A stretch of DNA of 64,000 nt from Thermoanaerobaculia bacterium (lineage in GTDB: Bacteria > Acidobacteriota > Thermoanaerobaculia > Multivoradales > UBA5704). Where the stretch lies: contig DASWME010000013.1 of the NCBI GenBank assembly GCA_036399915.1, positions 1,724 through 65,723 of the forward strand, read 5' to 3'. Positions 5,689 through 49,051 of the stretch are shown here, piece by piece; the stretch's first letter is position 1, and each line of letters opens with the position of its first letter. The translations under genes were made by a program, and so were the position numbers. The notes beneath the pieces are model-generated. The model did no database searches. It had not been told where the DNA came from and was given only the letters and a program-made list of their open reading frames with translations.

Positions 5689-5757
5689 AGCGGGCCTGGT
5701 CGTCAGCGGCCCGCCGGGCCGTGGCGCATCCCGACCGGCTGTGCTACAAGAGCCCCC

Positions 5758-6564: not shown

Positions 6565-6590
6565 ATCGTCTGATAGGCTCCTGCCACCCC

Positions 6591-8479: not shown

Positions 8480-8640
8480 CTTCCGTCTCTCCTTCGGCTC
8501 CTTGACTGGTGCGCATCAGAGGCTCGGCGTCACCGGTGCGCTCGCGAGCAGGATTTGCAACGCGCGGAGCCGACATGCAGTTACACCTCGGGCGGCGAGG
8601 CGCTTGCCGCCCGAGGTTCTGCAATTCGGGTGCCGTCGGT

Positions 8641-9462: not shown

Positions 9463-9608
9463 GATGGATGTCCTCCAGAAGAGCTCTGCGCCCGGGCTTG
9501 GGCGAGAGACGGCCACGCCTCGCGATCCGAGGGGTTTCAACCCATAGAGTGCCACAAAAGGGGGAATCCGGGTCAACCCGGCCCCTCACCTCCCCGCCCT
9601 CCCCTGGG

Positions 9609-11306
9609 CTATTTCCTCTTCGCCTCCATCACCCGTCCGCCCTGGTGCAGCTTCAGCCCGGTCACCTGGCCGCCCTCCCCGCGCACGAACTCCAACTGCG
9701 CGTCCACCTCCTTGAGGAAGAACCGCGTCTCCGACTCGGGGAAGATCTCCAGCTTCGGCTGCCCCGTGGCCTGGGCGAAGATCTTGTCGCCTTCGCGGGT
9801 GATGGTGAGGACGAAGCCGGGACGCAGCTCGTACTCGCCGGCCAAGGCGTCGTAGAGGGCGGGGTCGAGCCGGATCGCCTTGCGCTCCTGGGGAAGGGGA
9901 TCGGTCGTCTTCGTGCCGGACTCCTCCGGGCCGCTGCGGGGCGTAAAGTCCGCGCCCGTGACCCTCCCCTGAGCGTCGCGCCGGAAGTGGAGGCGGGCGT
10001 CGCCGTCCTTGAAGAAGAACTCGTCGCGGGCCGTGGCGAGGATCTCCTGCCTGCTGCCGCCGCTCCTCTGGGAAAACAGCTTCGGTCCCTCGCGGGTGAT
10101 GGTGCGGGTCGTCTGCTCGTCGAAGCGGTAGACGCCCACGTACTCGTCCAGCTTCTTGTCGTCGAGCGTCACCGGCGTCCGCTCCTCGAGCGGCTTGCCC
10201 AGGGCCTTGGCCGCGATGCGCAGGGCCAGGGAGTCCGGCGACGTCTCCGGGCTGTCGCTGTTGGACAGGATGGCCACGAACAGCCCCTCCTCCGGCACGC
10301 GCAGCAGGAAAGACGTGTAGCCGAAGATGCCTCCCCCGTGCTCCAGCACCCGCCGCCCTTCGAGCTCGTAGACCCCGAGGCCATAGCCATAGCGGGTGGA
10401 CCGCCCCGAGCTCAGCCGGGCAGGCGTGAACATCCGTTCCAGGGAAGCCTTCTTGAGCAGCGTCTCGCCCGCCAGGGCCCGGTCCCAGATCGCGAGGTCG
10501 TCCACCGTGGACATCAGCGACCCGGCGGAGTAAGGCTGGGTCATGCTCACGTAGTTGGCATGGCGGAAGCCGTTTTCGTCCCGGGTGTAGCCGGCGGCCC
10601 GGCGGGGGATGACCTCCTCGTGGTGGCCGTACCGGGAGTGGGTCATGCCGAGCTTCTGGAAGATCTCCTCCTCCACGAACCGCTCATAGCTCTTGCCCGA
10701 CGCCTTCTCGATGACGGCCCCGAGGAGGATGTAGGCCGAGTTGTTGTACCGCCACTGCTCGCCCGGCTTGAACTCCAGGGGCTTGTCCTTGAACAGGGCA
10801 ATCACGTCCTCCACCTTCAGGTCCTCCCGGATGCGGGAGAACCACTCCGGCAGGCCCGTGTAGCTCGGGATGCCCGACGTGTGGGTGAGCAGGTGCTCGA
10901 TCGTGATCTTCTCGCCGTGGGTGGGATAGTCCGGGAGGTACTTCGTGACCTCGTCCGCCAGCCGGAGCTTCCCCTGCTCCTCAAGCATCAGGATGGCCGC
11001 CGCCGTGAACTGCTTGGTGACGGACCCGATCTCGAACACCATGTCGGGCGACACCGGCACCCCGAGCTCCAGGTTGGCCATGCCATACCCCTTACGGAGC
11101 ACCACCTGGCCGTCCTTCATCACGAGCACCGCCGCCCCCGGCTGGTCCGCCGGATACGCGGCAGCGAGGAGCCGGTCCGCATAGGCCGCGAGGTCCGCCG
11201 GCGCCGTGGCCGCCCGGGCGGGGGCCAGAGAGAGGGCGAGAACCAGAAGGAAAGCGAACACCACCCGGAAGCGGGCGGGAAACGACTGCGAAGCCTGTAC
11301 GTTCAT
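9609..11306 (-). CDS. Serine hydrolase (beta-lactamase family) with two C-terminal DUF3471-like domains
   Basis: GSVTK (SxxK), YNN, LLTHTSG, HGGG; repeated C-terminal Y.G.Y...ITREG.KL..Q..G. Confidence 0.9.
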   Translation of the reverse strand: MNVQASQSFPARFRVVFAFLLVLALSLAPARAATAPADLAAYADRLLAAAYPADQPGAAVLVMKDGQVVLRKGYGMANLELGVPVSPDMVFEIGSVTKQFTAAAILMLEEQGKLRLADEVTKYLPDYPTHGEKITIEHLLTHTSGIPSYTGLPEWFSRIREDLKVEDVIALFKDKPLEFKPGEQWRYNNSAYILLGAVIEKASGKSYERFVEEEIFQKLGMTHSRYGHHEEVIPRRAAGYTRDENGFRHANYVSMTQPYSAGSLMSTVDDLAIWDRALAGETLLKKASLERMFTPARLSSGRSTRYGYGLGVYELEGRRVLEHGGGIFGYTSFLLRVPEEGLFVAILSNSDSPETSPDSLALRIAAKALGKPLEERTPVTLDDKKLDEYVGVYRFDEQTTRTITREGPKLFSQRSGGSRQEILATARDEFFFKDGDARLHFRRDAQGRVTGADFTPRSGPEESGTKTTDPLPQERKAIRLDPALYDALAGEYELRPGFVLTITREGDKIFAQATGQPKLEIFPESETRFFLKEVDAQLEFVRGEGGQVTGLKLHQGGRVMEAKRK

Positions 11307-12948: not shown

Positions 12949-13362
12949 TCAGCGGCGGCGCAGGGTCTCCTCCAGCGCCTCGCGCAGCCAGCCGTGCATC
13001 TCCAGCCGGGCCACCAGGAGCTGGGTGTCGAGGAACTCCTCGAACCTCAGGCTGAGGGCCGACGCCTGCTCCTCCGGCGTGGCCTGCTCCTCGACCAGCG
13101 GCTTGAGCGGCGGGACCGGCTCGCCGCGCGCCTGGTAGAGCGCCTGGTGGAGGTCCAGGATGTCCATCTCCAGCGCTGTGAGGATGCGCTGCAGGTTCTC
13201 CATGGTCGGGTCATGGACCCCCCTCTCGTACAGGCTGATGACCTGCGGCGTCGTCCCCGCCCGCTCGGCCAGCTCCCTCTGCGACAGGTTCGCCCGCCGC
13301 CGCAGCAGCTTCAGCGCCAGAGGCAGCCCCTGGAAGATCCTCCGCTTCTTCGCCTTGCTCAT
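12949..13362 (-). CDS. XRE-family HTH transcriptional regulator
   Basis: LKLLRRRANLSQRELAERAGTTPQVISLYERGVHDPT; ATGA overlap with the upstream gene. Confidence 0.9.
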   Translation of the reverse strand: MSKAKKRRIFQGLPLALKLLRRRANLSQRELAERAGTTPQVISLYERGVHDPTMENLQRILTALEMDILDLHQALYQARGEPVPPLKPLVEEQATPEEQASALSLRFEEFLDTQLLVARLEMHGWLREALEETLRRR

Positions 13363-13604
13363 CGCCGCTCCGCGCCCGGCCCCAGCGCCGCCGCGGCCGA
13401 GCGCAGGTCGTCGATCGCCGGCGTCACCGAGTCCACCACCACGCAGCGGAGCCGGTCGCGCAGCGCTACCGCGTCGTCCTCCGGCCCGTCCTCCCAGAGC
13501 TCGGGCAGGCCCGCGGCCGCGGCTTCCAGCCGCTCGCGGATCCCTTCCAGCTCGCGGGCCAGCTCCGTCAGCAACGCCTTGGCGGAAGCCTGGGCTTCAT
13601 TCAT
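13359..13604 (-). CDS. Small helical 'PAIDDL' protein (paralog of 44988-45218)
   Basis: LEGIRERL...LRCVVVDSVTPAIDDLRSAA; translationally coupled on both sides. Confidence 0.7.
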   Translation of the reverse strand: MNEAQASAKALLTELARELEGIRERLEAAAAGLPELWEDGPEDDAVALRDRLRCVVVDSVTPAIDDLRSAAAALGPGAERR

Positions 13605-13846
13605 CAACGGCATCCCTCCATCTCGACGGCGCCGGGGTCCCCGGGAGCCCGATCCTCCCCGGGTCCCCCGAGCGCCTCGTCCCCGAGCGCCCACAGCCTT
13701 CGTGTCATCCGCACGCATTGCGCGCAGCCGGTCAGCAGGTGGCGCACGATGACCCGCGCCTCCAGCCGGCTCGATGCGCCGCGCAGGAAGCGCGCCAGCG
13801 CCTGCGGGTCGGGATGGGCCGGCCAAGGCTCGTCGAACGCCCTCAT
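13604..13846 (-). CDS. Small zf-HC2-like (anti-sigma-type zinc finger) protein (paralog of 45215-45631)
   Basis: HPDPQALARFLRG...EARVIVRHLLTGCAQC. Confidence 0.7.
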   Translation of the reverse strand: MRAFDEPWPAHPDPQALARFLRGASSRLEARVIVRHLLTGCAQCVRMTRRLWALGDEALGGPGEDRAPGDPGAVEMEGCR

Positions 13847-14037
13847 CGGACCCGAGCCTACGAGCGGTTCTCCCTTGCCGCGATCCGCGAGCCCGCAAAT
13901 CCCCATGAGGTATGCGTCCAAGGGGATGTTTTTCCGCCCGCCGGCAACTTTCCTGTCTGCTCGCAGCGGTGTCTCAGTCACGCAACCGGTGCGCCGGGCG
14001 CTCCACTTCGATTAGACTGCGCGCAAGGAGGCGCGGC

Positions 14038-15534
14038 ATGCCCAAGTCGAGGAAGCTCTCCGCCGAAGCCCTGGCGCTCCTCTACCTGCGCTCCGAGCGC
14101 GGCTGGTCGAAAAAGGAGCTCGCCTCGCACCATGGCTATGCGGACGACAAGCAGATCTCGCGCTATGAGACCGGCGAGAAGACCCTCCACCGCGACCACC
14201 TCGAAGCCCTCGCCGCCCCTCTCGGCCACCCGCCCGAAGCCCTCGACGCCCTGGTCTTCATCCACCGCCTCATCGCGCCCGAGGACCCGCAGGAGCCCGC
14301 CTCCCCCGTTGTCGTCACCCCCGCCGAGCGCCGCCGCATCGACCGCGCCGCCCTCGCCGCCGGCTGGGCCATGGCCGACGCCGTGCGCGACGAGCTGCGC
14401 CGCCGCAAGCGCGCCGAAAAGGCCGCGGCCGACCGCCGCGAGGCCCAGGAGCTGTGGGAGCGCATGAGATCCGCCACCCGCCAGGAGCGCCGCGACCTCG
14501 TCGCCGTCTTCCCGGAGTTCCGGAGCTGGGCCCTGGCGGAGAAGGTCTGCCATGAGAGCGAGCGGGCAGCGGCCCATAGAGCCGAGGACGCCCTGGACCT
14601 GGCGGATCTCGCCCTCTTCATCGCCCGGCGGATGCCGGGGGAGGAGAGCTGGCGCTCCCGCCTGGAGGGCTACTGCTGGGCCTACACCGCCAACGCCCGC
14701 CGGGTGGCCAACGACTTCGCCAAGGCGGACAAGGCCTTCGCCCGGGCCTGGGAGTTCTGGCGGGCCGGAGCCTCCACCACTCCCGAACTGCTCGCGGAGT
14801 GGCGGCTGCTCGACCTCGAAGCCTCACTGCGGCGTGCGCAGCACCGCTTTTCCGAAGCCCTGGAATTGCTCGACCGCGCCAGAGCCGCCAGCGAAGGAGA
14901 TCCCATGGCCGCCGCGCGCATCCTGCTGAAGAAGGAGCAGGTCTTCGAGCAGATGGGGGATATTCAGGGTGCCCTAGAGGCTCTGGCGGAGTCGGCCCCA
15001 TTCATAGAGGGGTCTGGGGATAGCCGTTTACTTTTCGCTTTCCACTTTAAAACTACGAATCATCTCTGGCATCTCGAGCGCTACAAGGAGGCGGCGGACC
15101 AGCTGCCGCACGTGCGCGAGCTGGCGGAACGGCAGGGCGCCGAACTGGACCTCCTGCGGGTGGTCTGGCTGGAGGCGAAGGTGGCGGCCGGCCAGGGCCG
15201 CAAGAAGGAAGCTCTCGTGGGCCTGGAGCTGGTGCGCAGCGAGTTCACGGCCCGTGCTCTCCCCTATGACGCCGCGCTCGCCGCCCTGGATCTGGCGGTG
15301 CTCTGGCTGGAGGAGGGGCGTGCGGCGGAGGTGCGAGAGCTGGCCCTCGCCATGGCGTGGATCTTCCAGGCCCAGGGGATCGCCCGTGAGGCCCTGGCGG
15401 CGCTCGCATTGTTCCGCGACGCAGCCCTGGGGGAGACGGCCACCGTGGAGCTGGTGCGGCGAACGATCGCCGAGCTAGAGAGGGCGAGGCGCTCCGCCCC
15501 TCCCCCTCGGGACGGGCGGAGGGGCCGAGAATGA
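14038..15534 (+). CDS. XRE-HTH + TPR regulator (RRNPP-like architecture), copy 1A
   Basis: N-terminal LRSERGWSKKELA..YADDKQISRYETG; helical TPR-like body (WALAEKVC, ANARRV, LLDLEASL, LALAALDLA); AAGGAGG RBS. Confidence 0.9.
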   Translation: MPKSRKLSAEALALLYLRSERGWSKKELASHHGYADDKQISRYETGEKTLHRDHLEALAAPLGHPPEALDALVFIHRLIAPEDPQEPASPVVVTPAERRRIDRAALAAGWAMADAVRDELRRRKRAEKAAADRREAQELWERMRSATRQERRDLVAVFPEFRSWALAEKVCHESERAAAHRAEDALDLADLALFIARRMPGEESWRSRLEGYCWAYTANARRVANDFAKADKAFARAWEFWRAGASTTPELLAEWRLLDLEASLRRAQHRFSEALELLDRARAASEGDPMAAARILLKKEQVFEQMGDIQGALEALAESAPFIEGSGDSRLLFAFHFKTTNHLWHLERYKEAADQLPHVRELAERQGAELDLLRVVWLEAKVAAGQGRKKEALVGLELVRSEFTARALPYDAALAALDLAVLWLEEGRAAEVRELALAMAWIFQAQGIAREALAALALFRDAALGETATVELVRRTIAELERARRSAPPPRDGRRGRE

Positions 15535-15538
15535 AAGC

Positions 15539-15850
15539 TCACGAGCCACAGTGGGGCCTGCCGCTCGGGTCGATTTGGCAGCCTTCCTTCGCTTGGTTCG
15601 TTGACGGCGGCTGCGGGGTTGGGCTGCTGATGCAGTGGCCACTCGGGTCGATGCGGCATCCTTCCTTGGTCCAGGCGTTTGTGAGGAAGTTCCAGGCGCG
15701 GCTGAAGAGGTCCAGGGAGAGCGGCCAGGAGAGTTGGGCCGGACAGGGGTTTGCGGGCCCGGGCCGCGCGGCGGCGAAGGCCCCGGAGGCGGCGAGCAGG
15801 CCGGCGAGCAGGAGGACCACGGTGGCGCGGCGGAGCGAAGGGGTGGGCAT
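15539..15850 (-). CDS. Secreted peptide precursor with two GCxIDPSG cores (peptide P1)
   Basis: Signal peptide MPTPSLRRATVVLLLAGLLAASGAFA; cores KEGCRIDPSGHC and KEGCQIDPSGRPHC; GGGAG RBS. Confidence 0.8.
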   Translation of the reverse strand: MPTPSLRRATVVLLLAGLLAASGAFAAARPGPANPCPAQLSWPLSLDLFSRAWNFLTNAWTKEGCRIDPSGHCISSPTPQPPSTNQAKEGCQIDPSGRPHCGS

Positions 15851-15958
15851 GACGGAGCTCCCTGGAGAGCGCTCCGGCGCTGGCCCCCCATGGACCGGGC
15901 GGGCGGCTCTCCGGAAAAGGTGTACCAAACGACCATACCCTATGCGTGTTCCGGGAGG

Positions 15959-16960
15959 ATGGCGAGCATGGCCAAGAAGGGGGACCCCAACGTCCTTCGC
16001 CTCGTGGTGTCGTTCCTGCGCTCCTACACGAGGATGACGCAGACGGCATTCGCCGATGCGGCCGGGGTGGCCCAGTCCGACATCTCGCGCTACCAGGCCG
16101 GCCGGCAGACGCCGCCGGAGGAGGCGCTTCGCCGCATGGCCGCGGTGGCGGGCGTGCCCTGGCCGGTGGTGATCCACGTGCGCCGCTTCTATGCCGCGGT
16201 GCTCTCCGTGGTGGCCCGCTGGAGCGCGGTCCAGCCCGGCGGCCCTCCTCTCGACGCCGCCTCCGTGGAGCGTGCCCTGCTGGCCGTGACCCCCTATCTG
16301 CTCGCGGACGCGGCGGCGGAGCCGGAGCGACCGACGCCGGAGGCGGAGTGCCGCGAGGCCGCAGAGATCTGGGCGGACTTGGAGCGCTTCCCCCTGCCGC
16401 AGCGCCGGCGGCTGATCGAGCTATCCCTTCACGCCTCGCGGAGCTGGGCCCTGGCGGAGAGGATCTGCCATGGCAGCGAGGAGGCGGCGGCCCGTAACGC
16501 GGCAGAGGCTCTGGAGCTGGCGGACCTGGCGCTGTCCATCGCCTGGCGCGTCCCGGGGGAGGAGAGCTGGCGCTCCCGGATGGAGGGTTACTGCTGGGCC
16601 TACGTGGCCAACGCCCGCCGGGCGGACAACGACCTCGCGGGAGCGGACGAGGCGTTCGCCCGCGCCTGGGACCTCTGGCGGCGGGGAGCCGAAGCCGATC
16701 CGGGGCTGCCTCCGGAGTGGCGGCTGCTCAACCTGGAAGCCTCCCTGCGGCAGGCGCAGCACCGGTTCCCCGAAGCCCTGGAATTGCTCGACCGGGCCAA
16801 GGCGGCCAGCGAAGACGATCCGGTGGCCGCGGCGCGCATCCTGCTGAAGAAGGAGCACGTCTTCGAGTAGATGGGGAGACACCCAGAGCGCGCTCGCGGC
16901 CCTGGGAGAAGCCGGCCCCGCTCGTGGAAGCCTCAGGGGATTCCCCACCTGCCGTCACTC
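15959..16960 (+). pseudogene. XRE-HTH + TPR regulator copy 1B, truncated
   Basis: Colinear with 1A at offset 1918; CAG->TAG at 16868-16870; homology continues out of frame (APLVEASGDS) to about 16950, then is replaced by lower-GC DNA. Confidence 0.8.
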
Positions 16961-17173
16961 TGCGGATCTTGCGTAGCACAACGTTCTCTGATATCCTTCA
17001 ATAAATTCTCTGTTAGTGCTAGGAACCCACGATCCGCCTCAGCAGCAATCCAGGTATCAGGCCAAGATTCTGACTCACGGTTGTATCGTAGGATCCTCAT
17101 CTTCAGCCCAGAAGAAAGAGAAAGAAGTATGGTTGTGAGAACCCCGTTTCAATTTGCACAGCACATCGCGCCG

Positions 17174-19177
17174 ATGTTCAGCCGGCTTGCGGCGGCCACA
17201 GTCTTGATCCTCCTCGTCGCTTCGGCCCCTGCTCTCGCTCAGGAGAAGGGGAGGGGACCTCGCCCCTTGCCGCCCGAGCAGCTCCATGCCGACGCAAGCG
17301 CGCTCGGCTTGACTCCCGAGGTCGCGGCTCTCATCGCCGACACGCCGTTGATGCGGGACCTCCCCGGCCCTGAGGACACCGCCGAGGTCATCCGCCGCTA
17401 TCTGCGCAAGGGCAATTACGAAAAGTTGTCGCCTGAGCGGTACACCGCGCTGATGGAGGACACCGTGCGCCGCTGGCCCGAAAGCCGCCTCGCGCACGAG
17501 GGGCTGGCCCAAGCCCTCCTTGGCGGCCATGGCGACCCATCGCCGGAGGCGCTGCAGCGCGCCGCCAAGGAGTACCTGGCCGCGGCGGAGATCGGGTTCA
17601 GCCACGGCGAGGTGCACTACGAGATGGTGATCGCGGATGTCCTGGGGAGGACCGGAGACAAAGCTGCCCTCGACGACTACTTCGCCAAGGTCTTCTCCTT
17701 GATCGGCGACGAGAAGGAACGTTACGGTGCGTATCTCTCTTATGCCCAAGCCCTCTCAAGGCTCGGCGACCGCCGCGCCGAGGAGTACTTCCTCAAGGCG
17801 ATCGACGTGAGCCCCGGAGGATTGGATCCTTACGAGCTGTATGCAGTTTATCTGCTCGAAACCGGCCAGCCGCGGAAGGTGTTGGATCTGTTGAGCCCTC
17901 AGGTTCTCGAGTCGGCCGTCTCCACCCGCGATTTCTTCCGCGGCCTGCGCTGCCGCGCGTTAAAGCAGCTGGGCCATGACCCAAAGCAGGAGGCTGACTG
18001 CCAGGTCACGTCACGGCCTGTCCCGCCGTCGGTGGGAGGTGCCGGCTCGGTCCCTTTTGTCTTTGAAGCCGCTGAGGGTCAGAAAGGGGACGGATCCCTT
18101 GAGAGTATCTTCGGCAAGGCACACATCAACAATGCGGATGACTGCCGGTATAACACCAGCCCTGGCTGCGCCTACCACCCGGCTGATCCGAACTTCTACA
18201 AGATCTGTTACAATTTTCTTACCTGGAACCTTGCTGAGATAATCGAGAACGAGGCCTTTACCGAGGCACCAGGATCCCGCGTCGCGGTGGCTTGGACGGT
18301 GCGCGATCGCGTACTCCGTAGCAAGAATCCGGGTGGCAGTCTACCCGCCTGCGGGGGCTTCCCGGGAGGCGGCGGCACCTGCACCTCGGCATGCCCGGCT
18401 CCCAACCTGCCGGAAACCTGTGACATCCAGAAGCGCTACTGCTGCGTTATCCATTCTGGAAGCTTCGTGGACACCCACCGGTCTGTCACCTTTCAGAACA
18501 TCGACTTTGCCTACAGGGTCATTGAGGGCGGGCTCCCGGACCCGGTCTCGGGTTACCTTCCGCAAGGCGCCGGCTGTTCTCTCAACAGTTGCGACGGGAC
18601 CGTCTACTGCAATACCTGGGGCGGTGAGTTGGACTTTGCGCCTGAAGGCCCCATTTTCTTTTACGGCAACCGAGCCACCAGCTACCGCTGCCTGGGATAC
18701 CAGCCCCTCGTCTCCACCGCCTGCAGCATCGTCGCCGGCGAAACCTGCGGCGACTCGGCCGATGGCTCGGGGAGCGACAACTGCTACGGCCGTGCTACGA
18801 GACAGCGGCCCTGGGACGGCACCCAGCTTGCGTGCGGTGCAGGTTGCACGAGCAATGGCTCGATCAAGCGCCTGATCAGTGGTGCAAACCTTTTCAAGAC
18901 ACCAACTGAGACTCCGAAATTCAAGGACCCGGGAGGGAAAGCCTTCCTCCTCGAAGCTGCGCTCGAAAGCGGAACGGGAGCTTCCGTCCGCGTGCAGCTT
19001 CTCAACTCTGCCGGAGCGCTGCTCCATGATTTCGGCACCCTGACCGTCGGCTCGACCACCTACACGAGCTACGAATTCAAGTCCTCAATCGTGATCCTGG
19101 GACCAGGGAGCACGGTGAAGGTCATCAACAACGGACCTTCCGTCATCCTGGTCCGAAAAGTCACGGCCCACGACTAG
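17174..19177 (+). CDS. Secreted TPR + SleB/Hydrolase_2-like Cys-rich protein
   Basis: Signal peptide MFSRLAAATVLILLVASAPALA; TPR-like helices; LAEIIENEAF..RVAVAWTVRDRV resembles the Hydrolase_2 motif; alternative start 17129. Confidence 0.75.
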   Translation: MFSRLAAATVLILLVASAPALAQEKGRGPRPLPPEQLHADASALGLTPEVAALIADTPLMRDLPGPEDTAEVIRRYLRKGNYEKLSPERYTALMEDTVRRWPESRLAHEGLAQALLGGHGDPSPEALQRAAKEYLAAAEIGFSHGEVHYEMVIADVLGRTGDKAALDDYFAKVFSLIGDEKERYGAYLSYAQALSRLGDRRAEEYFLKAIDVSPGGLDPYELYAVYLLETGQPRKVLDLLSPQVLESAVSTRDFFRGLRCRALKQLGHDPKQEADCQVTSRPVPPSVGGAGSVPFVFEAAEGQKGDGSLESIFGKAHINNADDCRYNTSPGCAYHPADPNFYKICYNFLTWNLAEIIENEAFTEAPGSRVAVAWTVRDRVLRSKNPGGSLPACGGFPGGGGTCTSACPAPNLPETCDIQKRYCCVIHSGSFVDTHRSVTFQNIDFAYRVIEGGLPDPVSGYLPQGAGCSLNSCDGTVYCNTWGGELDFAPEGPIFFYGNRATSYRCLGYQPLVSTACSIVAGETCGDSADGSGSDNCYGRATRQRPWDGTQLACGAGCTSNGSIKRLISGANLFKTPTETPKFKDPGGKAFLLEAALESGTGASVRVQLLNSAGALLHDFGTLTVGSTTYTSYEFKSSIVILGPGSTVKVINNGPSVILVRKVTAHD

Positions 19178-19315
19178 AGCCGTTGTTCCGGGCACCGGTG
19201 TCCCGACGCTGGTGCCCCGGTGGCCCGCAGGGCCGGCAGCAACCCTTATTTCTCACAGCGGTACTCCTTTGGTGAAAATTGGCTGGGAAACCTCAGGCAG
19301 GGAGCTAGCAGAAGC

Positions 19316-20049
19316 CTACGAGTTTCTCCAAACCATGGTGATGCCTTCGCAAAGAGAACTGGGCAGGAACCGGTAGGCAGCGTTCTTCAGAGACCCCAGG
19401 ATCACCTGTCGTCCTACGGTCTCACCGGATTCCCCATGCGCGAATCTTGCGTCGAAGTAAAATGACATCGTGCATTCCTCGATCCGAAATCCTACCTCTG
19501 AAGCTAACTCGAGGAGCTCTTTTCGCGTGTACTCCCGGAATGGCCAGGGTTCTGCCGATCCACCCGGATCATCTCGAACGGGTTCCGTCCGAGAAGCAGC
19601 TTCAATCTTTTGGGCAAGGAGGCGGCGTTGGGAATTTGTAGGACAATACACCCATCGTCAACCAACAACGCTCGAACGAAACTTAGCGCAAACTGAGGCG
19701 CCGTGTAAAGATGGTCGAGAACTTCGGCCATCACCACAAAGTCATATCTGGGGAGATCCCGGCGCCAGGTCTCCGTCCGCTGGGTGAGGTTCAGGTCAAA
19801 CCCGAAGTGCCTGCCTTCGGGCGTCACTCGATCCTCTCCGAATCCCAGCGAATCGACTGCGATGCCAAACCGCTCGTGGATCAGCGCCGTCAACCGTGAC
19901 GGACCGATATCCAAGAGCGTCGAACCGGGTCCAACACCGTACCTGTCCAGGATCTCCAGCAGGTACGCGTAGCGGGGCGCGTGATAGGCGACGTAACCTT
20001 GATCCTCGCCATGGATGGCGGCCGCTGAGGGACCTCGCGCCTTTCGCAT
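19316..20049 (-). pseudogene. Class I SAM methyltransferase split by a 1-bp frameshift
   Basis: LLDIGP, DFVVMAEVLDHL, IPNAAS..NPGH in one frame, FREYTRKELL in another; CAT-TTC lost one T near 19540. Confidence 0.75.
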
Positions 20050-20261
20050 CTTTGGAGATCCTACCCCACCCTGCCTCCCCTGGCGGGTTGGCGGCCGTGG
20101 GTCTGGGCACTCACCCATCCCGAGCGCCTCCTAGAGAGGATGCAGAGCGCCGCGAACGGAAAAGGTGGTCCGGCGGACCATAGCCTATGCGCCTTGGCGG
20201 GAGGGAGTCTCCAGCCCGCCCGCTCCATGCGACAGTACGGCCGCACTCCAGGAGGAATTCG

Positions 20262-21425
20262 ATGACCGAGAGCGACCGCGTCACAGGGGACGAGGAGGTG
20301 CCTTTTCAGGCCCGCTGGCTGGCGCGCCTGTCTGTTCGCGAGCGCGGCCGCTACCGGCGGGCGCGGGCGCTGCTCGGCGCCGGCGGCGGCGCGCGGTCCC
20401 TTATCGCTGGGGATTTGGCCCTGGCCGGGCGCGGCGTCTACGAGGCGCTGCTCGCTCGGAGCTGGGCCGTGCGGTTCGACGATCCCGAGGAGATGGTCCA
20501 TCTGGCCGAGACCGCGCTGGAGGTGGCCCGGGGGTTCGCGGTCCGCCGGCGCGGAGTGCGGCGCGTCGCCGACCTCAACGCGCGCGCCTGGGGCGAGCTG
20601 GCCAACGCTTGGCGCGTGGCGGACCGGCTGGGCCCGGCGCAAAAGGCGTTCGGCGAGGCCTTCGCCCTGCTCCAGAGGGGCACGGGCGATCCGTACCTCA
20701 AGGCGCGGCTGTTCGACCTCGAAGCCTCCCTGCTGGGGACGCTGGGGGAGCACCGGCTCGCCCTGCGCCGGCTCGCATACCTTGCCGAGCTGTACCAGGA
20801 GTTGGGCGAGCCCCACCTCGCCGGCCGGGCCCTGGTGGGCCAGGCGCTGTACACGTTCTACGGCGGGCAGGCCGAGGAGGCGGTCAAGCTCAACGCCGAA
20901 GGGCTGGCGCGGCTCGACCGGCGGCGGGACCCGGCCCTGTTCGGGCTGGCGCTGGTCAACCACCTGCTCTTCCTGGTGGACCTCGGGCAGTACCCGCAAG
21001 CGAAGCGGACGCTGTTCGAGCACCGCCGGCACCTGGCGGGCCGCGACCGGGCCACCTCGCTCCGGCTGCGCTGGATCGAGGGACGGATCAGCTACGGCCT
21101 GGGCGAGCTGGGGAGCGCCGAGGCCGCGTTCCGCGAGATAAAGCAGGGGTTCCTGGAGGCCGGCCAGGCGTTCGCGGCGGCGGTGGGCTGCCTGGACCTG
21201 GCCATGGTGCTGGTGCGCCGGGGCAGGCTGGAGGAGGCCGGGAGGATGGTGGGCCTCGCCCGGGCGCACCTGCTGGCGCTGGAGAGCTGCCGCGAGTTCC
21301 TGGGGGTGGTGGTGTATCTCGAGGAGTCGCTCCGGCGGCGCGAGGCCACGGCGGAGCTAGTCGGGGAGACCGTCGCCTTCCTCTGGCGCCGGGAGCTGCA
21401 GGTCGGCTCCCGGCCTCTGCGCTGA
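20262..21425 (+). CDS. TPR-like protein related to the regulator TPR body but lacking an HTH
   Basis: ARAWGELANAWRVAD, LFDLEASL, LRLRWIEGRI, LDLAMV motifs shared with the HTH-TPR copies; GGAGG RBS. Confidence 0.85.
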   Translation: MTESDRVTGDEEVPFQARWLARLSVRERGRYRRARALLGAGGGARSLIAGDLALAGRGVYEALLARSWAVRFDDPEEMVHLAETALEVARGFAVRRRGVRRVADLNARAWGELANAWRVADRLGPAQKAFGEAFALLQRGTGDPYLKARLFDLEASLLGTLGEHRLALRRLAYLAELYQELGEPHLAGRALVGQALYTFYGGQAEEAVKLNAEGLARLDRRRDPALFGLALVNHLLFLVDLGQYPQAKRTLFEHRRHLAGRDRATSLRLRWIEGRISYGLGELGSAEAAFREIKQGFLEAGQAFAAAVGCLDLAMVLVRRGRLEEAGRMVGLARAHLLALESCREFLGVVVYLEESLRRREATAELVGETVAFLWRRELQVGSRPLR

Positions 21426-43881: not shown

Positions 43882-44991
43882 TCAGGCGAAAGGCACCGGG
43901 CTCACGCGGACGCCCTGCAGCCGGAACGCCCGCCGCAGTTCCGGGGCCAGGAAGCTCCACTGACGGCGGTCCAGCCGCCCGGCCGCGGCGTCCTCCGCAT
44001 AGATCGCCAACGCGCCCAGCGCCAGGTCGAGGCCCGGCCGGCCCGCGAAGCGCGTGGCCAACTCCTCCACAGGGGCGCTCAACTCCCCGCCTCTCCCCAG
44101 CTCCCTCAGCACGAGCCCCAGATCGATCGTCGCCAGAGTGGTTTCGGGAAGCAGGCGCCGCGCGATCAGCTTGCGCCGCACCGCCTCCAGCAGGGGCTCG
44201 GCCGCCGCGACCTCGCCCGCGCCTGCAGCCACCCGGCCCTCCATCCAATACAGGGCGAACAGCGCCTTCTCATGGCGCACCCCTCCGTAGAGCCTCCAAG
44301 CGCTCTCGCGGGCCTGCCTCGCCTTCGCGGCCTCGCCGGCTGCCGCGAAGCAGAGCGCCAGGCCCAGGCCGCTGCGCACGGCCAGCCAGGCCTCCCCCGC
44401 GCGCTCCAGCGCCCGCCAGGCCCGCCGCAGCAGCGGCGCCGCCCACCCCGTCTCGCCCTCCTCCACATACAGCAGGCCGAGCAGCGCCCGGCACGCCTCC
44501 TCCTCCTTGCCATTCTGCGCCTGGCCAAAGAGCTGCAAGCCGTGGTGCAGCAGCGCGGCGGCTTCCGCGGTGCGCCCCTGGTCCCAGCGCAGCAGGCCCA
44601 GGGCGCGGCAGAACCGCCCGCGGCCCGCGGCTTCGAGCGTAAGGTACTGCGCCCGCTCCAGAAGGGCTTCCGCGGTTTCGACGTGGCCCATCAGCCGGCG
44701 CGCCGTGGCCGTCAGGCACAAAGCGCGCGCCAGGCCCTCGCTCTTGGCCGCGGGCGCGAGCCTGCCGCGTGTGCCCAGCCGCACGCAGAGCTCCGCCCCC
44801 AGGGTCGCCAGCTCGTTGGCCCGCCGCGGCGCGAACGGCAGCGCGGCCTGCGCTTCCTCCAGCACCAGCTCGTAGAGCTCCAGGCTGTGAAAGCGCTCCT
44901 CCTTTACGCGCTCCATCCGCTCCTCCCCGGCACCCGCCATGAGCTCGCCGAGCAGGCGCACCGTCTGTGGCTTCGATTTGGGAGGGCTCAT
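43882..44991 (-). CDS. TPR-like protein without HTH (related to 20262-21425)
   Basis: LTATARRLMG, LGLLRWDQG, LYWMEGRVAA, LATIDLGL; ATGA-coupled to the upstream gene. Confidence 0.8.
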   Translation of the reverse strand: MSPPKSKPQTVRLLGELMAGAGEERMERVKEERFHSLELYELVLEEAQAALPFAPRRANELATLGAELCVRLGTRGRLAPAAKSEGLARALCLTATARRLMGHVETAEALLERAQYLTLEAAGRGRFCRALGLLRWDQGRTAEAAALLHHGLQLFGQAQNGKEEEACRALLGLLYVEEGETGWAAPLLRRAWRALERAGEAWLAVRSGLGLALCFAAAGEAAKARQARESAWRLYGGVRHEKALFALYWMEGRVAAGAGEVAAAEPLLEAVRRKLIARRLLPETTLATIDLGLVLRELGRGGELSAPVEELATRFAGRPGLDLALGALAIYAEDAAAGRLDRRQWSFLAPELRRAFRLQGVRVSPVPFA

Positions 44992-45218
44992 TCTTCGTCC
45001 TCAGAGGCGGCCGCGCTGAGGTCGTCGATGGCAGGCACGACCAGATCGATGAGCACGCAGCCGATCACGTCGCGCAGCTCCGGCTCCACGTCCCCCAGGC
45101 GCACCCCGTGCTCGGGTTGCGGCGGCAGGGCTGCGGAGATGCGCTTCAACCGGTCGCGGATCGCATACAGGTCCTGCACCACCTCGCGGAGTTGCTCCCG
45201 CGCCTCGGCCTCGGTCAT
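44988..45218 (-). CDS. Small helical 'PAIDDL' protein (paralog of 13359-13604)
   Basis: LYAIRDRL...LRDVIGCVLIDLVVPAIDDLSAAA. Confidence 0.7.
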   Translation of the reverse strand: MTEAEAREQLREVVQDLYAIRDRLKRISAALPPQPEHGVRLGDVEPELRDVIGCVLIDLVVPAIDDLSAAASEDEE

Positions 45219-45631
45219 CTGGCTTTCCTGTGGAAGGGGAGGACGGCCCGCGGCCGCCGCAGACCCTTGGGCCCGGCCGGCACCGGCTCGGGCTCTTCGC
45301 CGTGGAGAAGGCGCAGCACCGCTTCGATGTTCGCTTGCGCGCTCTGCAGCTCCGCGATGATCTCCCTCGCCAGCTCCTCCGGAGTCTCTTCGCCGAGGTC
45401 CTCCTCCGGGGCGGGCCGCACGAACTGGTGGATCTCCGCCAGCGCGCCGGCCGCGCCCAGACCCCACAACCGACGCGTCACCCGCAGGCACCGCGGGCAG
45501 CCGCTCAGTAGGTGGCGCACCACGGCGCGCGCCTCGGGACCAGGCAGGCTGGCGCGCATGAAAAGCTCCAGGTCCCTCTCCTCAGGATGGCGGGTTGGCG
45601 CGGATCGGAGGCTCTCGCCCGGGATGATCAT
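45215..45631 (-). CDS. zf-HC2-like zinc finger protein (paralog of 13604-13846)
   Basis: HPEERDLELFMRA...EARAVVRHLLSGCPRC..TRRLW.LG. Confidence 0.7.
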   Translation of the reverse strand: MIIPGESLRSAPTRHPEERDLELFMRASLPGPEARAVVRHLLSGCPRCLRVTRRLWGLGAAGALAEIHQFVRPAPEEDLGEETPEELAREIIAELQSAQANIEAVLRLLHGEEPEPVPAGPKGLRRPRAVLPFHRKAR

Positions 45632-45806: not shown

Positions 45807-47279
45807 ATGCCGCGCAAGCTCACGTTCCGGCAGCTTCTCCTGTCCATCCTGGCGCTCTGGCACGACGTCAGCCAGAAGGAGATGGCCGCCGCCGCCGGCA
45901 TGTCCCAGAGCCGCGTCTCCCAGCATCTGAGCCGCGAGCGCGGCGGCGAGATCAAGGACGAGGACTTCGAGCGCCTGCTGGCGGCCCTGAAAGCCAAGCC
46001 CGCGGAGGTGCGGCTGGTGACGGCCTGCCTCGAAGGCCTCGACGCCCTGGAGGCGTCCGAGGACCTCACTGAGGAGGAGCGGGCCGAGATCGAGGAGGCG
46101 GCGCTCGCCGCCGCGCGCTTCGCCCGCGAAGGCCTCACCGAGGCCGTCCGCCGCTCCCGGACGGTGCCGGTCGAGGCCTACCCCGAGCCCCAGCAGGTCA
46201 AAGTGGCCCGCCGCCGGGCCGAGGAGCAGTGGCGGCTGTTGGCGGACCTTCCGTCCGAGGCCAGGCTGGCCGTGGTAAGCGTGGCCGCGGAGTTCCAGAA
46301 CTGGGCGCTCTGCGAAAGAATCTGCGCCGAATCCACGCAGCGAGCGTCGCGCAGCGTCGAGGAGGCGGCAGACCTGGCGCGGCTCGCCGAGGCCATCGCG
46401 GAGCAGGTCCGCGGACCCGAGGGCTGGCGCCTGCGGGTCCAGAGCTACGCCAGCGCGCACGGGGCGAACGCCCTCCGCGTCGCCGGCGAGCTGAGGGCGG
46501 CAGAGGCTGGCCTCGAGAGGGCCAGGCGGCTCTGGCACGCGGGCTCAGATCCCCATGGGCTGCTCGATCCCGGCCGGCTGCTCGACCTGGAGGCGTCCCT
46601 GCGCCGGGATCAACGCCATTTCGCCGAGGCCCTGGCCCTCCTCGACCAAGCCGCGGCCGTGGGCCGCTCCCCCGGGCGCGTCCTGATCAAGAAGGGGTTC
46701 ACGCTGGAGGTCCTGGGCGAGTACGAGCGCGCCATCGAGGCCCTCCTCAGGGCGGCACCCCTGGTGGAGCGCCAGGGCGATTCGCGGCTGCTCTACATGC
46801 AGCGCTTCAACCTGGCCGTCCTCTGCTGCCATCTGGGCCGCTTCTCCGAGGCCACCGAGCTGCTGGACCAGGTGCGGGACCTGGTTACGGAAAGAGGCGA
46901 CGCCATCGAGCTCAACCGCGTGACCTGGCTGGAGGGCCGCATCGCCGCCGGGCTGGGCCGGCCGCACGAGGCTCTCCGGCTCCTGAGGCAGGCCCGGGAG
47001 AGGTTCGCCGCGGAGAGGATGTCGTACGACGTGGCCCTGGCGCTGCTCGAAGAGGCGGTGCTCCTCCTGGACCAGGGCCGTGCTGCCGAGGTCAAGGTCC
47101 TGGCCCAGGAGCTGACCGAGGTGTTCCAGTCGAAAGGAGTGCACCGCGAGGCCCTGGCCGCCCTGCGGCTCTTCAAGGATGCGGCGGACCAGGAAACCGC
47201 CACGGCCGCGCTGGCCCGCCGGGTCCTCGCCTACCTCTTCCGGGCTCGCCACGACCACGGCCTGCGGTTCGAGTCATGA
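45807..47279 (+). CDS. XRE-HTH + TPR regulator, copy 2A
   Basis: VSQKEMAAAAGMSQSRVSQHL HTH; TPR body with WALCERIC, ANALRV, LLDLEASL. Confidence 0.9.
   Translation: MPRKLTFRQLLLSILALWHDVSQKEMAAAAGMSQSRVSQHLSRERGGEIKDEDFERLLAALKAKPAEVRLVTACLEGLDALEASEDLTEEERAEIEEAALAAARFAREGLTEAVRRSRTVPVEAYPEPQQVKVARRRAEEQWRLLADLPSEARLAVVSVAAEFQNWALCERICAESTQRASRSVEEAADLARLAEAIAEQVRGPEGWRLRVQSYASAHGANALRVAGELRAAEAGLERARRLWHAGSDPHGLLDPGRLLDLEASLRRDQRHFAEALALLDQAAAVGRSPGRVLIKKGFTLEVLGEYERAIEALLRAAPLVERQGDSRLLYMQRFNLAVLCCHLGRFSEATELLDQVRDLVTERGDAIELNRVTWLEGRIAAGLGRPHEALRLLRQARERFAAERMSYDVALALLEEAVLLLDQGRAAEVKVLAQELTEVFQSKGVHREALAALRLFKDAADQETATAALARRVLAYLFRARHDHGLRFES
46210..47279 (+). repeat. About 1.07-kb direct repeat of 47982-49051 (shared TPR-coding region)
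   Basis: Gapless at offset 1772, roughly 90% identical by eye; 5' HTH regions unrelated. Confidence 0.9.
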
Positions 47280-47507
47280 GCAGGGTCGGCCGTCGGGGTC
47301 CATGCCGCAGCCTGCCTCAATCTCGGGCCCAGGCTGGGGAGCGGTGTTGCAGTGGCCGCTGGGGTCCATCCCGCAGCCTTCCTTGGTGGACGATCCGCTG
47401 CCAAGCAAGGACAGAAACGTCCGGAACGGGCCGAGGAGGTCGGGCCGGGGGCCCGGCGAGGTGAGGAGGGAGGAGGCAAGGGCCAGGGCGACGAGGATGC
47501 GTTGCAT
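47274..47507 (-). CDS. Secreted peptide precursor with two GCGMDPxG cores (peptide P2)
   Basis: MQRILVALALASSLL...; cores KEGCGMDPSGHC and EAGCGMDPDGRPC; shares the TCATGA stop palindrome with 2A. Confidence 0.8.
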   Translation of the reverse strand: MQRILVALALASSLLTSPGPRPDLLGPFRTFLSLLGSGSSTKEGCGMDPSGHCNTAPQPGPEIEAGCGMDPDGRPCS

Positions 47508-47623: not shown

Positions 47624-49051
47624 ATGAGACGAGAGCATCTGCTGGCCCGCCTGCTGCGGGCGGTCTCCGGCAAGACCCAGGAGCAGTTCGGCGAGGAAAC
47701 CGGCGTGCACCCCTCCCTCATCGCCTTGATCGAGCTGGGGAAGGCCACGCCCGGCCGCGACCTTCTGGAGCGAATGGCGCGCTGCGCCTCGATCTCCCTG
47801 CCGGACGCCGACGAGGTCCTCGGCTCGTACGAGACGCTCCGCAGGACGCCCCAAAGGCAGGGCGGTGGTGTGGAGGACCTCTTCCGCGAGATCACGGAGA
47901 GGTTCGATACCTGGGCCAGGGCTGCCTACGGCCGTCTCCTGCGCCTCCCCCTGCCGGACCAGTCGCCGCGGGAGGAGGATCGCCGCCGGGCCGAGGAGCA
48001 GTGGCGGTTGTTGGCGGATCTCCCATCAGAGTCCAGGCTGGCGGTGGTGCGCGTGGCCGCGGAGTACCAGAACTGGGCGCTCTGCGAAAGGGTTTGCGCC
48101 GAATCGACGCAGCGAGCATCGAGCAACGTGGAGGAAGCGACGGCCCTGGCACGCCTCGCCGAGGAGATCGCGGAGCGGGTCCGCGGCCCCGAGGCCTGGC
48201 GCCTGCGGGTCCAGGGCTATGCCAGCGCGCACGGGGCGAACGCGCTGCGCGTCGCCGGCGAGCTGAGAGCGGCGGAGGCTGGCCTCGAGAAGGCCAGGCG
48301 GCTCTGGCACGCGGGCTCGGACCCCGAGGGATTGCTCGATCCCGGCCGTCTGCTCGACCTGGAGGCGTCCTTGCGCAGAGATCAACGCCGCTTTGCCGAG
48401 GCCCTGGCCCTGCTCGACGAAGCCGCGGCCGTGGGCCGCTCCCCCGGGCGCGTCCTGATCAAGAAGGGATTCACGCTGGAGGTCATGGGCGAGTACGAGC
48501 ACGCCATCGAGACCCTCCTTCAGGCGGCGCACGTGGTGGAGCGCCAGGGCGATGCGCGGCTTCTCTACATGCAGCGCTTCAACCTGGCCGTCCTCTGCTG
48601 CCATGTGGGCCGCTTCTCCGAGGCCACCGAATTGCTGGACCAGGTGCGGGACCTGGTTACGAAAAGGGGCGACGCCATCGAGCTCAACCGCGTGACCTGG
48701 CTGGAAGGCCGCATCGCGGCGGGCCTGGGCCGGCCGCACGAGGCCCTACGGCTCCTGAAGCAGGCGCGGGAGAGGTTCGCCGCGGAGAGGATGTCGTACG
48801 ACGTGGCCCTGGCGCTGCTGGAGGAGGCGGTGCTGCTCCTGGACCAGGGCCGCGCTGCCGAGGTCAAGGTCCTGGCCCGGGAGCTGACCAGGGTGTTCAA
48901 GTCGAAGGGAGTGCACCGCGAGGCCCTGGCCGCCCTGCGGTTGTTCAAGGATGCGGCGGACCAGGAAACCGCCACGGCCAGGCTGGCCCGCCGGGTGCTC
49001 GCCTACCTCTTCCGGACCCGCCACGACCCCGGCCTGCGGTTCGAGTCATAA
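47624..49051 (+). CDS. XRE-HTH + TPR regulator, copy 2B
   Basis: KTQEQFGEETGVHPSLIALIELG HTH; TPR body near-identical to 2A. Confidence 0.9.
   Translation: MRREHLLARLLRAVSGKTQEQFGEETGVHPSLIALIELGKATPGRDLLERMARCASISLPDADEVLGSYETLRRTPQRQGGGVEDLFREITERFDTWARAAYGRLLRLPLPDQSPREEDRRRAEEQWRLLADLPSESRLAVVRVAAEYQNWALCERVCAESTQRASSNVEEATALARLAEEIAERVRGPEAWRLRVQGYASAHGANALRVAGELRAAEAGLEKARRLWHAGSDPEGLLDPGRLLDLEASLRRDQRRFAEALALLDEAAAVGRSPGRVLIKKGFTLEVMGEYEHAIETLLQAAHVVERQGDARLLYMQRFNLAVLCCHVGRFSEATELLDQVRDLVTKRGDAIELNRVTWLEGRIAAGLGRPHEALRLLKQARERFAAERMSYDVALALLEEAVLLLDQGRAAEVKVLARELTRVFKSKGVHREALAALRLFKDAADQETATARLARRVLAYLFRTRHDPGLRFES

Follow-up and report, generated by a model that had tools for sequence, protein, structure and literature searches.

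We describe a small peptide gene, P1, in a 64,000-nucleotide stretch of DNA from a Thermoanaerobaculia bacterium (phylum Acidobacteriota; contig DASWME010000013.1). This whole stretch is referred to as the window, and its GC content is 69.6%. P1 encodes a precursor of the secreted type that carries two short Cys-bounded segments, the cores. It is flanked by two genes for regulators in which a helix-turn-helix (HTH) domain is joined to tetratricopeptide repeats (TPR): A1, convergent with P1, and A2, divergent from it. The regulators are also called receptors below, after the role proposed for them. A second complete module (P2, B1, and B2) lies 31 kb from P1. The receptors, the paralogous locus, a hairpin in the 5' leader of P1, and an accessory operon go beyond an earlier, preliminary description of this DNA, which dealt with P1 itself. 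The features are collected in Table 1.

Table 1. Features of the two peptide loci. Positions are those of the window; columns are those of the receptor alignment.
Feature	Position	Strand	Remarks
Small acidic accessory protein	13359..13613	-	84 aa; relatives in 43 loci
Cys-motif accessory gene, RHLLTGCAQCVRMTRRLW	13604..13906	-	divergent from A1; relatives in 33 loci
Convergent receptor A1	14038..15534	+	498 aa; XRE-type HTH and TPR superhelix, no membrane segment
A1 Gln301, column 302, TPR helix A position 9	14938..14940	+	strongest covariation with loop position 2
A1 Asn341, column 342, position 9 of next TPR helix A	15058..15060	+	second covarying position
P1 precursor gene	15539..15850	-	103 aa; stop codon 15539-15541; 100% match to P0001
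P1 core 2, KEGCQIDPSGRPHC	15548..15589	-	11-residue loop; loop position 2 = Q; followed by GS and stop
P1 linker, Pro/Ser/Thr-rich, ISSPTPQPPSTNQA	15590..15631	-	14 residues, 4 Pro
P1 core 1, KEGCRIDPSGHC	15632..15667	-	9-residue Cys-to-Cys loop; loop position 2 = R; hairpin E65-67/E73-75 (AlphaFold)
P1 amphipathic helix, Trp-rich, WPLSLDLFSRAWNFLTNAW	15671..15727	-	family consensus LLSRAWSFLTGLWSK
P1 signal peptide, Sec-type, MPTPSLRRATVVLLLAGLLAASGAFA	15773..15850	-	19-aa mean hydropathy 2.13; AlphaFold helix 4-22
P1 5' leader hairpin	15853..15920	-	23 bp; 68 bits, covariance model R1
Palindromic box CATAGGGTATG	15934..15944	.	divergent promoter region of P1
Divergent regulator A2	15959..16870	+	303 aa; different HTH type; ends at column 305 of 494
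TPR-like paralogue without HTH	20262..21425	+	387 aa; CATAGCCTATG box upstream at 20179-20189
Locus B accessory operon	43882..45631	-	Cys-motif 45215-45631; small acidic 44988-45218; TPR-like 43882-44991
Convergent receptor B1	45807..47279	+	490 aa; 3' end overlaps P2 stop by 6 nt
P2 paralogue, cores KEGCGMDPSGHC and EAGCGMDPDGRPC	47274..47507	-	77 aa; start codon fixed by leader match
Degenerate leader of P2	47511..47573	-	14.3 bits, E 0.31, weak alone
Divergent receptor B2 (P0010)	47624..49051	+	475 aa; compared with B1, TPR 90% and HTH 20% identical

The full translation of P1 is MPTPSLRRATVVLLLAGLLAASGAFAAARPGPANPCPAQLSWPLSLDLFSRAWNFLTNAWTKEGCRIDPSGHCISSPTPQPPSTNQAKEGCQIDPSGRPHCGS, followed by a stop. 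In the preliminary description, P1 was read as a signal peptide, an amphipathic helix, and two cores separated by a Pro-rich linker. Both cores translate exactly as claimed there, in sequence and in coordinates, and the linker is indeed rich in Pro. In the AlphaFold model of P1, which is of low confidence (predicted local distance difference test, pLDDT, 60.6), there are helices at residues 4-22 and 42-60 and one beta-hairpin per core, with DPSG at the turn. In six-frame translation, the window gives four matches to the pattern GCx[IM]DPxG, and 200 first-order Markov resamples give none; all four matches fall within two small open reading frames (ORFs) of like build, P1 and P2. Neither P1 nor P2 has a Pfam or NCBIfam match, and a scan for sigma-70 promoters and intrinsic terminators around P1 gives none either. 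A fifth Cys of P1, Cys36 (15743-15745, in ANPCPAQ), is unpaired; it lies between the signal peptide and the helix and is not conserved by homologues.

P1 belongs to a large family of peptides. A word-indexed protein search finds 8 close metagenome homologues with 2-4 cores each, and a profile search of 1.84 billion representative proteins yields no fewer than 1603 clusters (50% identity) at E <= 0.001 and 665 at E <= 1e-10. The family has no Pfam, NCBIfam, or Rfam entry, and none of the 1603 clusters is named. A scan of one genome per species gives 100 confirmed genome matches. Among the 80 matches listed, which by our count come from 44 species-level assemblies with at most 5 loci per genome, all hosts are Thermoanaerobaculia, Thermoanaerobaculaceae, Thermoanaerobaculum, or unclassified Acidobacteriota metagenome-assembled genomes. 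The viral contigs of IMG/VR contain no relatives of the family, and a phage-borne, arbitrium-like system is thus unsupported. Some loci are tandem arrays of two or three peptide-receptor units (loci L017 at 3493-10322, L071, L014, L026, L064, and L001). The three units of L017 point to a recent duplication in place, since their leaders are identical (76.8 bits each) and their peptides nearly so.

The core is the conserved unit of the family. We extracted 231 cores from 96 distinct precursors, of which 54 carry two cores, 27 three, 9 four, and 6 one, so that the multicore, secreted-type precursor of the preliminary description holds for the family, with 1-4 cores. The unit reads [K/D/E]-[E/T/A]-G-C-x-I-D-P-[N/D/S]-G-x-C, and 189 of the 231 cores have a Cys-to-Cys loop of nine residues. 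Searched for across genomes, the motif singled out in the preliminary description is kept by the homologues: a 10-sequence alignment shows no variation at seven residues (K, G, C, D, P, G, and C), and the core Asp is present in 228 of the 231 cores. The search pattern itself imposed the Pro, the Gly, and both Cys on this larger set, and their counts are uninformative. The linkers differ among homologues in both length and sequence, and 65 of the 96 precursors have a two-residue tail between the last Cys and the stop.

The N-terminus of the precursors has the features of a Sec-type signal peptide, as had been proposed for P1. In 90 homologues with a called start, the region before the hydrophobic core has a median of 3 Lys/Arg and 0 Asp/Glu, the best 12-residue stretch has a median mean Kyte-Doolittle hydropathy of 2.9, and a small-x-small site follows the hydrophobic core in 89 of the 90. 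In P1, the signal peptide would be cleaved after AFA. A twin-arginine export signal, prompted by a conserved pair of Arg, is rejected: the hydrophobic core is too hydrophobic and the pair is found in only 58 of the 90. A lipoprotein signal is likewise rejected, as no Cys follows the hydrophobic core. Between signal peptide and first core lies a segment of consensus LLSRAWSFLTGLWSK, in which two Trp stand seven positions apart. That it is an amphipathic helix, as the preliminary description had it, agrees with the AlphaFold helix at 42-60 and with a helical hydrophobic moment of 1.20, compared with 0.68 for shuffles. Since about 8% of shuffles attain a moment as high as the observed median, this statistic alone is only suggestive.

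The peptide genes have a characteristic neighbourhood. We searched six-frame ORFs of all loci, comprising 98 peptide genes, with hidden Markov models (HMMs) built from the genes of the window. A gene for an XRE-type HTH and TPR protein on the opposite strand abuts the 3' end of the peptide gene in 89 of the 98 cases, with a median gap of 21 nt; 72 of these are full-length, and 17 are fragments that result from frameshifts or contig ends. About 114 bp upstream of the peptide gene, a divergent HTH regulator is found in 79 of the 98 (34 full-length, 31 of about 260 alignment columns, and 14 reduced to the HTH). BLAST clustering of flanking ORFs, apart from the TPR genes and their antisense ORFs, gives no family that occurs in more than 8 of 83 loci. 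It follows that conservation in the 6-kb flanks of these loci does not extend to any modifying enzyme, protease, or transporter, in keeping with the earlier remark that no modifying enzyme is encoded near P1. The genes of P1 and A1 end only 4 nt apart (15534/15539), those of P2 and B1 overlap (47274-47279), and no intrinsic terminator is found there; the transcripts of peptide and convergent receptor would therefore overlap at their 3' ends, leaving room for antisense interference.

The regulators are predicted to be cytoplasmic DNA-binding proteins with a peptide-receptor type of architecture. HTH_31 and HTH_3 of Pfam score above their cut-offs in A2 and B2 and more weakly in A1 and B1, and TPR_12, TPR_2, and related models match as well. 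The receptors have no membrane-spanning segment, the peak 19-aa mean hydropathy being 1.1-1.3. The AlphaFold model of B2 (pLDDT 88.5) consists of an HTH, a long linker helix, and a TPR superhelix. When this model is compared with the PDB by Foldseek, the best matches are TPR domains that bind peptides: those of eukaryotic LGN/Pins are at the top, RapJ-PhrC (4gyo) takes rank 6 with E 2e-5, and RapF, RapI, and PlcR-PapR (2qfc) follow at lower ranks. A phmmer search of B2 against PDB chains gives no match at E < 0.1. Since neither solved structures nor models of the RRNPP family of peptide receptors match at the sequence level, we describe the architecture as RRNPP-type, with homology not established.

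The two receptors of one locus differ in their DNA-binding part and agree in their TPR part. The median identity within such pairs is 21% for the HTH and 65% for the TPR region, where it rises up to 94% and compares with 49% between loci.

The peptide is linked to its neighbours by the covariation of one loop residue with the TPR region. Loop position 2 takes 14 residue types across the family, and it is alike in 46.6% of the core pairs from the same precursor, compared with 13.5% after shuffling (0 of 2000 shuffles reach the observed value). Loop position 6 has no such concordance within precursors, and recent duplication alone is therefore insufficient to account for the uniformity at position 2. 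In the genome loci, the mutual information between position 2 and the columns of the convergent receptor gives z = 11.1 at column 302, 8.7 at column 301, and 7.4 at column 342, whereas control labels reach at most 6.8. When genome and metagenome loci are combined to 119 non-redundant pairs, columns 302, 342, and 301 have z values of 13.3-13.5, against a column median of 1.9 and a 95th percentile of 5.5. Among the cores of a precursor, the last one correlates best with the receptor columns (z = 14.1).

These columns fall where a ligand would be expected to lie. We aligned the motifs ILLKK-x-x-V-x-x-x-M-G-D and R-F-N-x-A-x-N-L of the receptors to the canonical 34-residue TPR consensus. On this alignment, we take columns 302 and 342 to be position 9 of helix A in consecutive TPR repeats, and columns 301 and 339 to be positions 8 and 6; positions 6, 8, and 9 of helix A face the concave ligand-binding groove. 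In the model of B2, columns 302 and 342 fall in helices 274-287 and 311-327.

The covariation takes the form of a simple residue code. A His at loop position 2 goes with Glu-His at columns 301-302 and Asp at column 342, and an Asn goes with Glu-His and Asn, respectively. A Gly is paired with [Gly/Ala]-Phe and Val, and an Arg with [Ser/Gly/Ala]-Asn at columns 301-302. These pairings make sense both chemically and physically. The second locus of the window fits the Gly class: loop position 2 is Gly in both cores of P2 (in which Met also replaces Ile), and B1 and B2 both have Gly-Phe at columns 301-302 and Val at column 342. More generally, in 24 of 28 loci both flanking receptors have the same residue at column 302, and in 25 of 28 they agree at column 342; the chance level is 0.18-0.21.

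Three controls were directed at shared ancestry. A predictor trained on the genome loci and applied to 39 independent metagenome loci is correct for column 302 in 12 of 39 cases, compared with 4.3 expected by chance (0 of 5000 shuffles), and for column 342 in 21 of 39. Sharing the residue at column 302 raises the chance of sharing loop position 2 in every bin of TPR identity, 2-5x in the well-populated bins and 13x in the small bin above 80% identity. Finally, we compared 54 non-overlapping nearest-neighbour receptor pairs, or sister pairs. Column 302 differs in 26 of the 34 pairs in which position 2 has changed and in 4 of the 20 in which it has not; the Fisher p of 6.7e-5 is the best of 318 columns.

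A second conserved element of the module is a 65-nt hairpin in the 5' leader, which stands immediately before the peptide start and whose base, UUUCC, pairs with the Shine-Dalgarno sequence GGGAG. We derived the structure from a hand-curated seed alignment and a covariance model, which replaced a gappy global MAFFT/RNAalifold treatment of 66 leaders. In the seed alignment, 88% of cells are paired, compared with 41-55% when the partner strand is slid, and in 13 pairs both partners have changed. Five measures were compared with 500 shuffles, none of which attains the observed value on any of them, and a model-fitted alignment gives a similar result. Applied to 931 kb of genome-derived loci, the covariance model yields 61 matches, all of which are on the peptide strand and end at the peptide start codon, and none elsewhere. 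In 66 metagenome loci, it yields 61 further matches, again all on the peptide strand, of which a few ends were spot-checked against peptide starts. Rfam gives no match to the leader at gathering score; its sole match at E <= 1, mir-296, scores 17 bits against a gathering score of 66, which is chance level.

The leader is better explained as an RNA structure than as a palindromic DNA operator, a candidate that we disfavour, because G-U pairs outnumber A-C pairs on the sense strand (148 versus 55). Its apical loop, (C)AUGG, is nearly invariant, and this constancy suggests a sequence-specific partner. The hairpin would add control over translation of the peptide; the structure itself is supported by covariation. 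The degenerate leader match before P2 is used to place the P2 start codon at 47507. One of the metagenome matches, in locus L111 (986-1051, 38 bits), is an orphan leader: in place of a peptide ORF, it is followed directly by the 3' end of a convergent receptor gene (1064-2590), and the peptide gene of this module seems to have been lost.

The divergent intergenic region upstream of the peptide genes is also conserved and contains the palindromic box CATA-N3-TATG. There are 27 copies of this box in 936 kb, compared with about 1.3 expected by our estimate from base composition, and 21 of the 27 are located 60-140 nt 5' of peptide genes. The other six are near the 5' ends of accessory genes: five stand before or within reading frames for Cys-motif or small proteins, and one is 5' of a TPR-like gene (20179-20189). 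Copies outside the window include those in L017 (5362, 7870, and 10413), L024 (7883), and L057 (7659). A two-part regular expression linking the promoters of the peptide and the accessory operon, which was badly spaced, is no commoner than in shuffled sequence. A second conserved box, TTTCGTGACA(C), was noticed by eye only. It lies about 60-80 nt beyond the start of the convergent receptor gene, between the receptor and the accessory operon, in L014, L018, L021, L026, L034, and others, and is sometimes half of an inverted repeat, TTCGTG-A-CACGAA.

The accessory operon is divergent from the convergent receptor. It was revealed by HMMs built from the two copies in the window, which are more sensitive than BLAST clustering. 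Of its three proteins, one carries the motif RHLLxGCxxCxxxTRRLW and is present in 33 loci, another is acidic and small, at about 80 residues (43 loci), and the third is TPR-like but HTH-less, with about 370-390 residues (about 15-20 loci). In Pfam, NCBIfam, and PADLOC scans, these three families match no known family and bear no enzyme signature, and scans of the peptides and accessory proteins together gave nothing useful. The Cys-motif protein of locus B has no match among PDB sequences at E < 0.1, and the TPR-like paralogue at 20262-21425 has a weak match to NsdA_fam_reg (24 bits against a cut-off of 75). The accessory genes are candidate output genes of the module.

Taken together, we lean, by a narrow measure, towards P1 being the pro-peptide of an RRNPP-like peptide-receptor module that is built from unrelated parts and resides in Thermoanaerobaculia. 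The reading builds on what the analysis shows, namely the peptide family, its synteny, the fold type of the receptors, and the covariation both of peptide with receptor and within the leader RNA. The precursor would be exported by the Sec route and lose its signal peptide. Each core would then form a beta-hairpin around the Asp-Pro-x-Gly turn, closed by a disulfide between its two Cys, and proteases would cut the Pro/Ser/Thr/Ala-rich linkers to give 2-4 peptides of about 9-12 residues. A peptide would reach the cytoplasmic HTH-TPR regulators that flank its gene and putatively bind in the concave TPR groove, a step for which the covariation argues. Loop position 2 would serve as the specificity residue, read by helix-A position 9 of two adjacent TPR motifs (columns 302 and 342). 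The two regulators, with unlike HTH domains and matching TPR pockets, may control both the peptide promoter and the divergent accessory operon; joint control is suggested by the CATA-N3-TATG box that the two promoters share. The leader hairpin, by occluding the Shine-Dalgarno sequence, would provide extra control of peptide translation. The preliminary description had proposed that P1 releases disulfide-cyclised signal peptides. The signal role is now backed by the flanking HTH-TPR regulators and by the covariation of loop residue and groove; release and cyclisation are proposed steps of the scheme.

Several points weigh against this reading. Acidobacteriota are Gram-negative. A peptide of 1-1.3 kDa would have to cross the outer membrane twice and be imported, with no conserved transporter or protease in the module, and the cytoplasm, as the site of the receptor, would reduce its disulfide. 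A look through public RNA runs finds none that covers this DNA, and we infer that the precursor is exported, oxidised, and cut, that the peptide is taken up and bound, and in which direction the regulators act. At the P1 locus, moreover, the divergent regulator A2 is truncated. The receptors match no RRNPP-specific Pfam or NCBIfam family at E <= 0.1, and their fold match is to TPR proteins in general. As for the covariation, mutual information is inflated by shared ancestry, the sister-pair p value of column 302 becomes about 0.02 once corrected for 318 columns, and column 342 is not significant in that test (p = 0.18), so that only column 302 stands out. The residue code also has exceptions, such as L104 and L155.

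Alternatively, P1 may be a secreted effector, such as an antimicrobial or defensin-like hairpin, a protease-inhibitor loop, or a metal-binding peptide, with the HTH-TPR proteins only regulating its production in response to another ligand. Repeated disulfide-closed hairpins together with a Trp-rich amphipathic helix are frequent in secreted effectors; the family has several diversified paralogues per genome, some loci adjoin polymorphic-toxin genes, for example the RHS tip at 49103-50977, and no import system is found within the module. An effector role leaves unexplained, however, why the loop residue tracks a groove-facing position 9 in phylogenetically independent pairs, why two receptors of one locus with unlike HTH domains have the same pocket residues, and why position 2 but not position 6 is uniform among the cores of one precursor. 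Nor is an immunity gene or exporter conserved in the flanks of the 83 loci. We consider this explanation unlikely, if still deserving of serious attention.

A less probable alternative is that the cores are bound by the TPR proteins while the precursor awaits export, or that a periplasmic or otherwise retained form of it is bound. The interaction would then be a partner switch or a chaperone-like check inside a single cell and would not carry messages between cells. The covariation would then be accounted for with no passage through the outer membrane and no re-import, the receptors are cytoplasmic, and a leader that occludes the Shine-Dalgarno sequence suggests tight control of translation. 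However, the signal peptide found in nearly every homologue and the paired Cys point to a location outside the cytoplasm, and multiple cores with protease-prone linkers suggest that the cores are released. On balance, we regard a purely intracellular role as distinctly improbable.

It is very improbable that P1 is the precursor of a ribosomally made, post-translationally modified peptide whose tailoring enzymes are encoded elsewhere in the genome. The multicore build with a conserved segment before the cores does resemble such precursors, and the amphipathic segment before the first core could be a recognition element. However, no enzyme family recurs in the 6-kb flanks of the 83 loci, the N-terminus has the features of a secretion signal and not of a leader that cytoplasmic enzymes would recognise, and Pfam and NCBIfam precursor models do not match.

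Self-release of the cores by spontaneous or RHS-like cleavage at the Asp-Pro bond, which the preliminary description had thought conceivable, has no support and is extremely improbable: Asp-Pro bonds are acid-labile, and what speaks for cleavage is solely the shared DPxG pattern, but P1 has no RHS-associated core domain, which in RHS autoproteolysis ends in a DPxGL motif and supplies the catalytic aspartates, whereas the real RHS protein of the window has this domain (TIGR03696, 66.5 bits), and the near-invariant D, P, and G fit a structural turn rather than a cleavage site, as they sit at the tip of the nine-residue Cys-to-Cys loop, at the hairpin turn of the AlphaFold model, where a cut would open the loop and not free the core.

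The RRNPP-like peptide-receptor module favoured here can be compared with known systems. RRNPP(A) quorum sensing has been described for Bacillota and for their plasmids and phages (PMC10075063, PMC9765709, PMC12700828); in these papers, peptide signalling through cytoplasmic TPR receptors is confined to Bacillota and the mobile elements they carry. A literature search gives no relevant full-text match for RRNPP in Acidobacteria or for quorum sensing in Thermoanaerobaculia. As in the RRNPP(A) systems (PlcR-PapR, NprR-NprX, PrgX-cCF10, Rgg-SHP, Rap-Phr, and AimR-AimP), a gene for a secreted pro-peptide stands beside a gene for a cytoplasmic receptor with HTH and TPR-type domains. All RRNPP subfamilies except Rap have an N-terminal HTH. 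The divergent and convergent gene order resembles that of rgg/shp and prgX/prgQ, there are several paralogous systems per genome, the specificity of peptide and receptor covaries (here statistically), and RapJ-PhrC, RapF, RapI, and PlcR-PapR are among the structural matches. In contrast, the receptors of the P1 module have no detectable sequence homology to RRNPP(A) receptors, and its hosts are Acidobacteriota and not Bacillota. RRNPP(A) peptides are linear, unmodified oligopeptides that are re-imported by an oligopeptide permease, whereas the cores of the P1 family have paired Cys and a turn motif and would be Cys-closed DPxG hairpins, and their conserved gene neighbourhood includes no permease. 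The P1-type gene is flanked by two receptors with unlike HTH domains, and its module adds an SD-occluding leader (SD, Shine-Dalgarno) and an accessory operon. We therefore do not file the P1 module as a member of RRNPP, although it would work like one, since neither its receptor sequences nor its hosts agree with that family.

Other systems share single traits with the P1 module. The Phr pro-peptides of phage Rap-Phr systems are tandemly duplicated, contain several putative copies of the pheromone, and are processed for release by extracellular proteolysis (PMC11343458). They resemble P1 in having several signal copies in one precursor and differ in that they yield linear Bacillus-phage pheromones of 5-6 residues, compared with 1-4 Cys-bounded units of 9-12 residues in which one specificity residue is uniform. 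In filamentous cyanobacteria, which are of the Gram-negative type, the RGSGR peptides of PatS and HetN act directly on HetR, a cytoplasmic DNA-binding protein. A gene-encoded peptide signal acting on a cytoplasmic DNA-binding regulator is also what is proposed for P1; however, PatS has neither a Sec signal nor Cys loops, HetR is not an HTH-TPR protein, and there is no comparable rule of gene neighbourhood. Bowman-Birk inhibitors and SFTI-1 are plant proteins with a disulfide-closed nine-residue loop, CTKSIPPxC. The likeness lies in a nine-residue, Pro-containing Cys-to-Cys loop that is repeated within the precursor, and the difference, apart from the plant origin, in register and residues (CTKSIPPxC versus CxIDPxGxC in the P1 family); a link of the P1 family to proteases is not seen, though no test was aimed at one.

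If the module works as proposed, peptide communication through TPR receptors is not tied to the Gram-positive cell plan, and the question arises of how a peptide signal crosses two membranes. The compact specificity code between loop position 2 and TPR position 9 would be usable for orthogonal signalling pairs. Acidobacteriota are an abundant, hard-to-culture soil phylum, and to our knowledge little is known about signalling in them. The peptide family with its at least 1603 clusters, the leader RNA, and the three accessory families are all unannotated. Tentatively, and with less confidence than we have in the module as such, we suggest that soil Thermoanaerobaculia may run many parallel, orthogonal cell-to-cell channels of this kind. 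Each would consist of disulfide-stapled hairpin pheromones released from a multicore precursor, paired HTH-TPR receptors with a simple code in which one or two of their residues read a single peptide residue, an RNA leader switch of its own, and an output operon of three families, and would form an independently evolved or anciently diverged counterpart of RRNPP.

Both loci of the window adjoin DNA of lower GC content. Next to P1, the GC content drops from 0.70-0.74 to 0.56-0.62 exactly at the break of A2, whose last residues are ILLKKEHVFE. The low-GC stretch extends over about 16900-20200 and looks like an insertion that truncated A2; it contains an ORF of 682-768 aa (16871/17129-19177), which matches no family and combines a signal peptide with a C-terminal half rich in Cys. 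At the second locus, the C-terminal fragment of an RHS-repeat protein (49103-50977, plus strand) lies directly 3' of receptor B2 and carries the RHS-associated core TIGR03696. The GC content of this stretch is 0.60-0.66, and the tip of the RHS protein matches the Pfam family SAA (serum amyloid A) with E 3e-23.

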